From the NCBI GenBank assembly GCA_963664325.2, contig CAXXDQ010000003.1, forward strand, positions 96,001-160,000: 64,000 nt of DNA. Direction: 5' to 3'. Under the pieces are notes generated by a model, which searched no databases, was not told the DNA's origin, and worked only from the letters and a program-made list of their open reading frames with translations. Positions 30,358-32,390 of the stretch are shown here, in pieces. Position 1 is the stretch's first letter; each line of letters starts with the position of its first letter. The position numbers were made by a program, and so were the translations under genes. This DNA is from Desulfomonilia bacterium (GTDB lineage: Bacteria; Desulfobacterota; Desulfomonilia; UBA1062).

Positions 30358-30501
30358 TCAGGTGTCTGAATCTGCACGCTTCTTGTGCTTGACCTTGCGC
30401 GGCAGCTTCCCCTTTTCGGGCTCAATGGCCCCGGCCTTGCGAAAATGGGCCTCTATTGCCAGCAGATTGCGTGCCTTCGGCTTTTTAATTCGTTTAGGCA
30501 T
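30358..30501 (-). CDS. 47-aa basic protein, ArfA-like motif (copy 1; not in ORF track)
   Basis: MPKRIKKPKARNLLAIEAHFRKAGAIEPEKGKLPRKVKHKKRADSDT; paralog at 32223-32390 differs mostly at synonymous positions; no clear RBS. Confidence 0.65.
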   Translation of the reverse strand: MPKRIKKPKARNLLAIEAHFRKAGAIEPEKGKLPRKVKHKKRADSDT

Positions 30502-30784
30502 AAAATGGTGACAGGCCTTGATCCTTGACAAAAACAAAATATCCTGACACCTTCAGTCTCCCTTCTCTTATAGTCCCTGCTGATTATGTAAAAGACAACT
30601 CCCGGATATTCTATTCATAAAGGCCTTCCCATGACAGAATTAATACCCGTCTCACCCCTATTCGTCAAGATTCAAGGCCTGAGACTATTCAGTTCCAAAG
30701 CCAGCGGCACTAAAGATATCCATGTGCATGCCGATGTTAGTACAAGACTCCTCGTGTCATGAAAATAAATATCCGGAGGAATGC

Positions 30785-31531
30785 ATGGCAGAATCTTTAG
30801 ACGTTTTCGCTGATGTCAACCTTGAACCGCAGCCATACGAGAGCATGGACTTCGATCATATCCTCGTCATAGGCAGGACATATGATGAATACAACGACAT
30901 GTTCCTGCTCGACGACATCAAACCCTCGGACGGAAAGATATTAAATGTCGCAGGCGGAGTCAGCTCTTATACCGCCGAAGCAGCCGACCGCGGGTTTACG
31001 ATATTTTCCGGCGATCCCGTCTACTGCCTCGAACCGGACGCCATTGAAGGAAAATGCGAAAACGACATAGAAAACTCGATAAGCAACCTGAAAAGACTTC
31101 CTCACATGTTCAACTGGGGACATCCCTTGAGGGATATAGACCATGTCCGCGAGAACAGAAGAAAGGCCTACAAAACATTCCTGGAAGATTTCAGGAAGAA
31201 CCGCTGGCGCTATCTGGACGCCTATTTCCCATACACCCCGTTCATGGCACGCAATAATTTCGCGCTCTCCCTGGTTTCGCACCTGCTGTTCGTATATGAT
31301 AATTTCATCGACTATGAGACGCATGTGAAGATCATAAAAGAGCTTTTGCGGATAACATCCGGTGAAATAAGGATATATCCCCTAGTCAACCTTCAATTCC
31401 AGCCCTGTGAAATCGTAGAACCCATCATGAATGATCCGAGATTCGAAGGGGTCTCTTTTGAAATACGCCCGTCACGGTACAACTTCATTAAAAATGCCGA
31501 TAAGATGATGATTATCAGAAAGCCGCAATAA
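30785..31531 (+). CDS. Putative class I SAM-dependent methyltransferase
   Basis: GRTYDEY..MF, ILNVAGGVSSY (motif I-like), GDPVY, LVSHLLF-Y, EIRIYPL; GGAGG RBS. Confidence 0.65.
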   Translation: MAESLDVFADVNLEPQPYESMDFDHILVIGRTYDEYNDMFLLDDIKPSDGKILNVAGGVSSYTAEAADRGFTIFSGDPVYCLEPDAIEGKCENDIENSISNLKRLPHMFNWGHPLRDIDHVRENRRKAYKTFLEDFRKNRWRYLDAYFPYTPFMARNNFALSLVSHLLFVYDNFIDYETHVKIIKELLRITSGEIRIYPLVNLQFQPCEIVEPIMNDPRFEGVSFEIRPSRYNFIKNADKMMIIRKPQ

Positions 31532-31584
31532 AACCCGGAAAGCGGCTGCCTGCACGGCTTACCGCATGCTCGTCAATGCTGGCG

Positions 31585-32175
31585 TCAGAGGGCGTAGCGT
31601 GCCGGTATGATGCCGTGCTTGAACATCTCGTACAGCTCCCGGATTTCCTCATCGGTATAGATTGCAAGCAGCCTCAGTATTTCGCAGGCGAACTCAACGC
31701 TGCCCAGTCCGCTCGCGGTTATGAGGTTCCCGTCGGCTACTGCAAGCCTGTCTACATAGAAATCATCATCCGCATAAGCCGGCAGCATGGCCTTTAGATA
31801 CCCCTTGGTGTTGCTAGTATGCCTGAGCCCGTGCGTCAGCCCGGCCCGCACAATCTCCAAGCTCGCTCCGCATATCGCGGCTACGACGACGCCTTTTGCA
31901 TGGAGTTTGCGGAGCAGCCCGATCACATCCTCATGAGGTCCCTGCTCCCACATCTCCCCGCCCGACATGATGAAGACGGCGGCATCTTCGGGTTTGACCC
32001 CGGCAAGGGTAATATCCGGACTGATCCTGTAGCCTCCCATAGTGGTGACGGCATCTGCGGAAAAGCCGACCGTGACTATGCCGAACCTCTTTGACTTGTT
32101 TATCTCGCACAGGGCAAGAGCCGGCTCCCAGTCCGCCATACCGTCAAAGACAAATATATATGCTTTCAATACCAT
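31585..32175 (-). CDS. DJ-1/PfpI family protein
   Basis: ADWE, GGEMW, AAICGA nucleophile elbow, HTSN, LITASG. Confidence 0.9.
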   Translation of the reverse strand: MVLKAYIFVFDGMADWEPALALCEINKSKRFGIVTVGFSADAVTTMGGYRISPDITLAGVKPEDAAVFIMSGGEMWEQGPHEDVIGLLRKLHAKGVVVAAICGASLEIVRAGLTHGLRHTSNTKGYLKAMLPAYADDDFYVDRLAVADGNLITASGLGSVEFACEILRLLAIYTDEEIRELYEMFKHGIIPARYAL

Positions 32176-32222
32176 AAGAAGTATCCCCCTTCACTGATGC
32201 CCGGTTTGCCCTTTGACGCATT

Positions 32223-32390
32223 TTAGTATCCCGGTCTTGCCCATACATATCCATGAATTCCGTATCTCATGGTACGGCGCGGGAACTTTCCCTTTCCGGG
32301 CTCGATGGCGCCTGCCTTGCGGAAGGGGGCATCCACGGCCAGCAGATTGCGGGCCTTTGGTTTTTTAATCCGGTCCGGGTTTACTGGCAT
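32223..32390 (-). CDS. 55-aa basic protein, ArfA-like motif (copy 2; not in ORF track)
   Basis: MPVNPDRIKKPKARNLLAVDAPFRKAGAIEPGKGKFPRRTMRYGIHGYVWARPGY; 27/32 identical residues with copy 1 core; divergent tail. Confidence 0.55.
   Translation of the reverse strand: MPVNPDRIKKPKARNLLAVDAPFRKAGAIEPGKGKFPRRTMRYGIHGYVWARPGY

Follow-up and report, generated by a model that had tools for sequence, protein, structure and literature searches.

What a duplicated pair of very small genes does in an anaerobic bacterium is the question raised by a 64,000-nucleotide stretch of DNA from a Desulfomonilia bacterium (contig CAXXDQ010000003.1, positions 96,001 to 160,000), referred to here as the window. Two minus-strand open reading frames (ORFs), at 30358-30501 (47 amino acids) and 32223-32390 (55 amino acids), had been noticed there in a first-pass annotation made from the sequence alone, which likened their products to the ribosome-rescue factor ArfA; the coordinates, strand and lengths of both are confirmed. 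The explanation that best accounts for the whole, to which we give a probability of roughly one half, is that the first ORF (copy 1) would encode an ArfA-type rescue factor that recruits a release factor, and that the second (copy 2) would be a partial duplicate of it. This reading draws on sequence comparison and on analogy with ArfA.

Both ORFs are real protein-coding genes, whose products are small, basic and largely unstructured, and both are under purifying selection. Copy 1 (30358..30501, minus strand) runs from an ATG at 30501 to a stop at 30358 and encodes an intact, ArfA/DUF7230-like protein with a KGK...RKVKHKK tail and the C-terminal end ...RKVKHKKRADSDT; an alternative frame started by TTG has 59 residues. 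Its structure, as predicted by AlphaFold2 with a mean predicted local distance difference test score of 73, consists of a helix at residues 13-22, a short helix at 35-38 and otherwise extended chain. Copy 2 (32223..32390, minus strand) encodes a paralog that keeps the core up to PRR. The duplicated core, delimited by BLASTP, DNA comparison and a codon table, comprises codons 2-37 of copy 1 (30391..30498, minus strand) and codons 5-40 of copy 2 (32271..32378, minus strand), with 28 of 36 residues identical (BLASTP, E 5e-19). Among these 36 codons, 17 are identical, 11 differ synonymously and eight non-synonymously, and the differences fall predominantly on the third codon position (5, 4 and 17 at positions 1, 2 and 3, respectively). 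The 27 identical residues out of 32 and the ten silent codons counted at first pass are reproduced exactly over codons 4-35 of copy 1, and the coding signature read from them is borne out by the ratio of non-synonymous to synonymous substitution rates (dN/dS, Nei-Gojobori). This ratio is 0.14 between the two copies, at a synonymous rate (dS) of 0.86, lies at 0.04-0.09 between copy 1 and its orthologs, and ranges from 0.03 to 0.14, with dS of 0.5-1.5, over the 33-codon core in all ten pairs of the five genes known from the genus. Past P-R-(K/R), copy 1 continues with VKHKKRADSDT and copy 2 with 18 unrelated, aromatic-rich residues, so that the replacement of the KH tail described in the first-pass annotation is directly visible in the codon table; the nucleotide similarity between the copies is confined to the coding core and ends at its borders.

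That the ORFs may not be genes at all, but a frame open by chance or a non-coding repeat, finds some footing in the lack of a clear Shine-Dalgarno sequence upstream of either start codon (the same reading as at first pass), unlike the DJ-1 gene between them, which is preceded by GAAGGGGGA, and in the fact that both are shorter than the usual length cut-offs of annotation. It is opposed by the strong purifying selection, by the conservation of frame and length in three of three genus genomes as well as in proteins from metagenomes, hundreds in number, and by the restriction of the DNA similarity to the coding core; selection, genus conservation and metagenome homologs effectively refute this highly improbable alternative already. 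Both ORFs are treated as translated genes because of their conservation in the genus, low dN/dS and metagenome homologs, despite the missing Shine-Dalgarno sequences. The whole stretch is present as contigs in four sequencing runs of one study, with no RNA run listed.

Homologs, whose absence would have spoken against the first-pass annotation, are found both in the genus and far beyond it. Profile searches of whole genomes recovered one intact copy of the KVKHKK type in each of the three other genomes of the genus, and the metagenome contigs L034-L036 also carry one intact copy, directly 3' of a hydrolase gene wherever that flank is present; close homologs of 47-50 amino acids occur in metagenomes. 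The same type of search found the small gene in none of 37 genomes from other genera of the same family and class, and in none of a further 300 genomes taken from across the phylum. The RNL(L/I)A...AHFRKAGAIEP subtype is almost limited to this genus and a few metagenome contigs, and the comparison of sequences supports the view that, within this phylum, the window proteins form a divergent family restricted to a lineage. In the same phylum, a 50-residue basic ORF with a KGKGAY-NRK stretch (locus L033, G235:C152, ORF 1447-1596, plus strand) scores 21.5 bits on the Pfam ArfA model, whose cut-off is 25.5, and may be another ArfA-like small gene, independent of the first. Another match in the phylum below the threshold of this model (PF03889), a frame of 95 residues, was rejected, as it reads as part of a larger transposase-like protein.

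From this narrow subtype, the searches lead to a much larger family. When 1.84 billion representatives were searched exhaustively by HMMER with the close alignment (A2), 17 were returned at E<=1e-3; the internally repetitive P0012, P0021 and P0024 and the 149-residue P0011 were dropped from the family alignments built on this search. A profile of 18 sequences then retrieved 357 proteins at E<=1e-3, mostly of 42-60 amino acids, which follow the consensus K.RN[WL].AV.AHF[RK].G.G.H..K.KY.RK.KHK, the residue after RN also being given as [WLP]. The Pfam domain of unknown function DUF7230 (PF23876), for which no mention was found in the literature searched, is matched by 26 of 40 aligned family members at E<=10, with a best score of 37.7 bits for a viral member (L027) against a cut-off of 27, and by four of the 18 relatives reached from the window ORFs (best 22.8 bits). 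A precomputed PF23876 match is present on three of the 120 profile-search proteins listed, and the nearest ESM Atlas clusters are DUF7230 clusters (score 0.94). Both window ORFs are without a match by the curated cut-off of 27 bits and are not members of DUF7230 as Pfam defines it. From their sequences, the window proteins fit best as a divergent RNLLA...AHFRKAGAIEP subtype within a DUF7230-like family linked to ArfA. The first-pass annotation had expected a divergent family in this anaerobe, which holds as regards its lineage restriction within the phylum and fails as regards confinement, since the DUF7230-like family is also found in viral contigs.

Members of the family are encoded on 14 IMG/VR viral contigs, many of them behind a good Shine-Dalgarno sequence. 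In one of these loci (L024, 1289-4120) the family gene follows ORFs with peptide deformylase-like and DnaK-like N-termini, and in another (L031, 3959-6677) a DnaJ-like ORF is located near the viral member; these N-termini were read by eye, and the translation and proteostasis neighbourhood recalls the ClpB gene beside the window genes. A scan of the genome contigs with the family alignment gave 18 pattern matches, none of which was confirmed, and a degenerate DNA pattern for the RNW motif pointed to a single locus, L017, on a contig of a metagenome-assembled genome (NVVL01000055.1). There, an ORF of 70 amino acids (2241-2453, minus strand) carries the family motif at its N-terminus, without the basic tail, and sits just upstream of ORFs that we read as scaffold-like and capsid-like, in a phage-like region. 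The family member P0035 had no match in cultured phages by tblastn.

Phages also provide the bridge to ArfA itself. Cultured phages were searched with E. coli ArfA, taken from the K-12 record, because the pelagiphage HTVC027P is reported, in the accessible text of PMC12753301, to carry an ArfA domain in its protein gp30. The search gave 17 records, and the ten phage proteins extracted from them all pass the PF03889 cut-off. One of these, from Pseudoalteromonas phage J2-1 (L043), passes the cut-offs of both ArfA and DUF7230 (28.6 versus 27 bits for the latter), while two more have sub-threshold DUF7230 matches that span nearly all of their length. Several phage ArfAs start their core with (K/Q)RN(P/I)xA and have RK.KHK-like tails, and are in this sense intermediate between ArfA and DUF7230; PHROGs 2701, 6310, 20887 and 37108, all of unknown function, match phage proteins of the DUF7230 type as well as of the ArfA type. 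As a side result, a 47-residue stretch of Salmonella phage Arash (L040, gp99c) scores 69.6 bits on Pfam ArfA inside a coding sequence annotated as 'ribosomal protein L2', a product name that looks wrong. Small unannotated ORFs that score 25.7-72.5 bits on ArfA are also present in Pseudomonas phage pf16 (L042), Roseobacter phage CRP-212 (L045), Ralstonia phage RsoM2USA (L046) and Caulobacter phage Cr30 (L048), where they overlap annotated genes of the opposite strand or sit within longer 'hypothetical protein' calls.

The comparison of profiles agrees with this bridge. When the family alignment (A7) is compared by hhalign with a diverse ArfA alignment that includes the phage proteins (A9), the probability is 50.4% (P 1.6e-4) over 42 columns, in a register that pairs N12 with N14, F20-R21 with F25-R26, the family tyrosine with Y39, and R35-K36-x-K38-H39 with R41-K42-x-K44-H45 (family and ArfA, respectively). 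The score of 25.1 was reached by none of 300 column shuffles of ArfA (mean 8.4, standard deviation 2.1, maximum 15.7) and none of 200 shuffles of the family. An alignment of enterobacterial ArfA only (A5), replaced by A9 because it is too uniform, gave the same register at a probability of 11% (P 0.0027), again with none of 200 shuffles reaching the score. An iterative hmmsearch was seeded with A9 against a database of 138 family proteins, in which the repetitive P0012, P0021 and P0024 were left, and 77,640 six-frame ORFs of this genome. In the first round the top five hits were family members (E 0.0033 to 0.11), ahead of the first decoy at 0.17. With inclusion at E<0.01, the second round took in 28 family members, the third 124 together with both window ORFs (E 6.1e-4 for copy 2 and 4.2e-7 for the other ORF), and the fourth 134, again with both (1.5e-11 and 1.4e-18); by the third round no other ORF of the genome was below E 0.22, and none of these 77,638 ever fell below E 0.05. 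A statistically supported link to bona fide ArfA of the kind that would place the family in the ArfA superfamily, near full-length between profiles or transitive, was found.

Against these results must be set a series of observations that weigh on the other side. Scans of both ORFs with Pfam, NCBIfam (E<=10) and PHROG models gave no match, neither of them is recovered when the whole genome is scanned with PF03889 and PF23876, and by the PF03889 and NCBIfam ArfA models, without a match at E<=10, they are not members of ArfA; PF03889 matches none of 40 members of the wider family. No chain in the PDB is matched at E<=10 by the family profiles A2 and A7, although ArfA chains are deposited. The best hhalign probability at family level is only 50%, and the close subfamily alone reaches 5% against A9 (P 0.0076). 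The iteration depends on a loose first inclusion (E 0.0033 and 0.0078) and does not start at 1e-3, and the sequences are short, lysine-rich and of low complexity, which makes convergence plausible. To these are added, at the level of the genes and of the proposed function, the missing Shine-Dalgarno sequences, an ArfB-like protein already available as a backup in the genome, a spacing from N to F three residues shorter than in ArfA, the alignment of ArfA L19 and L24 with the non-hydrophobic E17 and H19, and the lack of a hairpin or terminator inside the ORFs, where the 3' parts of the five genes fold with z-scores of -0.49 to +0.94 and share no hairpin.

Several of these points would follow if the likeness to ArfA were a convergence of short K/R-rich peptides, and the DUF7230-like family an unrelated nucleic-acid-binding protein, for example one derived from phages. 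The lack of any direct HMMER match between the window ORFs and ArfA and the hhalign probability of at most 50% fit this idea, as do the many members on viral contigs amid small ORFs of unknown function, the L017 member beside genes read as capsid-like and scaffold-like, and the 'unknown function' label of every PHROG match. It has to contend, however, with the failure of all 700 composition-preserving column shuffles to reach the real score, with an alignment that covers nearly the full length and keeps its register at the non-basic N, A, F and Y, with one natural protein that passes both Pfam cut-offs, and with 77,638 other genome ORFs, many of them basic, that were never recruited. Convergence is regarded as improbable, and common ancestry of the family with ArfA as likely, though not proven for such short basic sequences. 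The resemblance to ArfA proposed at first pass is in this way strengthened by the profile alignment, the phage protein that passes both cut-offs and the ArfA-seeded iteration; it falls short in the absence of a Pfam or NCBIfam ArfA match, in the 5% of the close subfamily and in the lack of an ArfA-style hairpin.

Compared with ArfA (PF03889; YhdL in E. coli), the window proteins share the small size and basic character, the in-register pattern N..A....F-R......K.K.(Y).R-K-x-K-H, the basic C-terminal tail and a phenylalanine aligned with the RF2-contacting F25, in a host whose release factor 2 (RF2) keeps the ArfA contact residues. They differ in remaining below every Pfam and NCBIfam ArfA threshold, in having three residues fewer between N and F, in reading KGKLP instead of KGKGSY, in lacking both a hydrophobic C-terminal extension and an internal hairpin for control by RNase III and transfer-messenger RNA (tmRNA), and in belonging to a phylum where canonical ArfA exceeds the cut-off in none of 301 genomes. 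According to the accessible text of PMC11633108, ArfA is restricted to Gammaproteobacteria and some Betaproteobacteria, plus ten species of the Bacillus subtilis group counted via the homolog BrfA, and release-factor-dependent rescue by ArfA is the least conserved rescue route. The short phage ArfAs serve as bridge sequences (Brevundimonas phage Bambus, Citromicrobium phage RXM, Roseobacter phage CRP-212, Erythrobacter phage XM05 and Pseudoalteromonas phage J2-1; gp30 of HTVC027P, as far as described in PMC12753301). They resemble the window proteins in their length of 39-60 amino acids, a normal stop codon, the absence of a regulatory extension, the core start and, in some, RK.KHK tails, but, unlike the window proteins, pass the PF03889 cut-off (ten of ten) and keep KGKGS(Y/F). 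DUF7230 proteins are of the same length class and show the pattern RN..A...H..K.KY.RK.KHK, whereas the window proteins remain unmatched at E<=10 and form a subtype of their own. With ArfT of Francisella and BrfA of Bacillus subtilis, which recruit RF1 or RF2 and RF2, respectively, in the accounts available in PMC6299226 and PMC6881298, the likeness is one of concept only, that of a small, basic sensor of the empty mRNA channel; no relation was turned up by profiles run against PDB chains, which involved no direct comparison, and ArfT is assigned to a different repeat family in the accessible part of PMC6514570.

The functional reading is built on analogy with E. coli ArfA. In the portions of bioRxiv 10.1101/091256 and PMC6299226 that bear on it, ArfA residues 31-48 occupy the empty mRNA tunnel, a protein truncated after M40 is inactive, and a patch formed by L19, L24 and F25 touches W319, V198 and F217 of RF2. 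Copy 1 has the corresponding positively charged C-terminal tail, with K30-G-K-L-P-R-K-V-K-H-K-K aligned with ArfA K34...H45, and its F20, conserved in at least 90% of alignment A3, aligns with F25. Aligned with E. coli RF2, the RF2 encoded by this genome retains V198, S205-P-F207, F217 and W319, which speaks for compatibility rather than proof, because these residues may be widely conserved and only the two RF2s were compared. As E17 and H19 stand here in the positions of ArfA L19 and L24, any contact with the release factor would not be identical to that of ArfA; L13, L14 and I16 of copy 1, on the predicted helix 13-22, might substitute for the patch. The predicted complex of copy 1 (alignment A7) with the RF2 of this genome, scored 0.04 with a mark of 0.32 and without controls run, counts neither for nor against.

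With these elements, copy 1 would act on ribosomes stalled at the 3' end of an mRNA with no stop codon, where its K/R-rich C-terminal tail (KGKLPRKVKHKK) would thread the empty mRNA channel, while the helix at its N-terminus, together with the conserved HF(R/K) element, would recruit and activate a release factor of class I, of which RF2 is the most likely. The recruited factor would then hydrolyse the peptidyl-tRNA without a stop codon, and copy 1 would serve as a backup to tmRNA and to the ArfB-like protein. Control of the ArfA or BrfA type, linked to tmRNA, is not expected, because no hairpin or terminator lies within the ORFs. The partners required for this scheme are present, as the genome encodes tmRNA, RF1 and RF2, its full-length release factors being a protein of 355 amino acids and a frame of 330; canonical ArfA was not found by the whole-genome PF03889 scan. 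A 119-residue GGQ protein with a K/R-rich C-terminal tail, shorter than both release factors (L014, G000:C8, ORF 1447-1806, plus strand), is read as ArfB-like from its sequence. The RF2 frame (L013, G000:C4, ORF 1396-2388, minus strand) opens only at a TTG, without the usual N-terminal residues; a programmed +1 frameshift is typical of prfB and would account for such an N-terminally short frame.

The same homology evidence would fit proteins that are true relatives of ArfA and DUF7230 and bind the ribosome through their tail, yet perform no release-factor-dependent rescue, such as a hibernation-type or stress peptide or a phage-derived modulator of translation. Such a role is suggested by the RF2-contacting hydrophobic residues, which except for the phenylalanine are not conserved, by the absence of tmRNA-coupled regulation, by the presence of tmRNA and ArfB in the genome already, and by the stress and proteostasis neighbours, namely ClpB, DJ-1 and KatG in the window and def-dnaK or dnaJ beside the viral members L024 and L031 (our own reading). 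Nevertheless, the positions at which the family is most conserved (N, F-R/K, Y and RK.KHK) are those common to ArfA, including the RF2-contacting phenylalanine, and no known hibernation or ribosome-associated family was matched, which leaves ribosome binding without rescue a rather unlikely function.

The presence of a second copy is explained by the architecture of the locus. The genomes G001-G003 and the metagenome contigs L034 and L035 have the small gene some 30 nucleotides downstream of a same-strand gene for a 248-residue hydrolase, and this synteny of hydrolase and small gene is seen in the loci L006, L007, L008, L034 and L035. The window has the corresponding alpha/beta hydrolase gene (Hydrolase_4/S33 type by Pfam, 248 amino acids; 32421..33167, minus strand), the conserved upstream neighbour in every relative examined. 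Copy 2 starts 30 nucleotides downstream of it, in the ancestral upstream context, behind a spacer that resembles those of L034 and L006, and the two genes are probably co-transcribed. Copy 1 is followed by a flank that matches the one after the single gene of L034, and has 88% nucleotide identity to that gene, compared with 80% for copy 2; judged by sequence and downstream flank, copy 1 is orthologous to the gene that relatives have in single copy. About 40 nucleotides 3' of its stop, a terminator-like hairpin of 11 pairs with a T-rich tail (30292..30316, minus strand) was found by a pattern scan. On its own this hairpin is weak, because the scan found two such sites against 3.2 expected; its sequence recurs, as part of the shared flank, downstream of the L034 ortholog. 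As the flanks of both copies match the single-gene locus L034, the ancestral unit of hydrolase, small gene and terminator is now interrupted by about 1.7 kb.

The DNA between the copies (30502..32222) is absent from the relatives, where hydrolase, small gene and a copy-1-type flank follow one another with nothing between. In the window it includes a DJ-1/PfpI gene identified by Pfam (31585-32175, minus strand) and an ORF of 269 amino acids without a Pfam match at E<=1e-3 (30722-31531, plus strand), and the insert is bounded by the diverged duplication of codons ~2-37. Copy 2 is best read as a partial duplicate that arose when these genes came inside the ancestral hydrolase-small-gene unit; it may have originated in an in-situ duplication followed by divergence, or a diverged copy may have been imported.

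As for the state of copy 2, it keeps the core and the upstream context, but is without the basic tail of the channel-binding type, ArfA-like in its positive charge, and is aromatic-rich after P-R-R; no KHK-type tail is visible by eye in its sequence, and an origin of the new tail by frameshift was discarded. Judging by the ArfA truncation data, it is expected to bind the ribosome poorly because the tail is missing. It also has a proline at a near-invariant histidine (H19P) that is conserved in at least 90% of family members, and is the most divergent gene of the genus set, with 74-80% nucleotide identity to the others versus 80-91% among these. Its core nevertheless shows dN/dS of 0.06-0.14 at dS of about 0.9-1.5, a low ratio that argues against long-standing neutrality, from a sample of only 33 codons. 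On sequence grounds, copy 2 would be a variant, weakened or regulatory and with another role, or else a duplicate in slow decay, consistent with the alternative offered at first pass (a regulated variant or a decaying gene) and with a partial duplicate made by the insertion.

Copy 2 could instead be a non-functional remnant of that insertion, open by chance, with copy 1 as the only working gene, and this comes close to an even chance. The loss of RK.KHK, which is the family's most conserved feature at the C-terminus and whose counterpart in ArfA is required for ribosome binding according to the truncation data in the accessible text of 10.1101/091256, points in this direction, together with H19P, the divergence from the rest of the genus and the fact that a gene of the copy-2 type was found in no second genome or contig. 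The frame has, on the other hand, stayed open, with the core ratio quoted above despite the high dS, and the gene retains its ancestral position behind the hydrolase gene.

The surroundings of the pair also bear out the stress genes listed at first pass (clpB, DJ-1 and katG): in addition to the DJ-1/PfpI gene, ClpB is encoded at 26559-29180 and a two-domain peroxidase of the KatG type at 20366-22681, both as neighbours of the small genes. The 269-residue ORF diverges from copy 1, and the spacer of 220 nucleotides between them contains a weak promoter-like match (30637-30608, minus strand). Between clpB and the small gene lies an ORF resembling a PD40 beta-propeller lipoprotein (29181-30218, minus strand), while the same interval in three relatives of the genus (L006, 528-1471) has two unrelated ORFs on the opposite strand, of about 175 and 139 amino acids, without a Pfam match; as judged from these ORFs, the block between clpB and the small gene is exchanged within the genus.

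Taken further, and more tentatively, DUF7230 and the unclassified RNW/RNL-type proteins of 42-60 amino acids may together form a large, overlooked ArfA-type branch of release-factor-recruiting proteins, patchy in non-proteobacteria and common in phages, which would carry them so that host ribosomes that stall on degraded mRNA are recycled; copy 2 would then be a 'release-factor-binding but channel-blind' modulator of copy 1. This broad proposal is, on the present evidence, doubtful. No description of a link between DUF7230 and ArfA was found in the literature searched, which did not cover Pfam clan assignments and InterPro text, and ArfT and BrfA are treated as inventions separate from ArfA. 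The locus itself illustrates how conserved genes of 40-50 codons are missed by genome annotation, and its pair of an intact and a tail-less protein splits the proposed mechanism into its two halves. If the proposal were true, DUF7230 would gain a testable role, and ArfA-type rescue would reach a phylum in which the canonical model finds none, as well as many uncultured phages, making this rescue system more widespread than thought.

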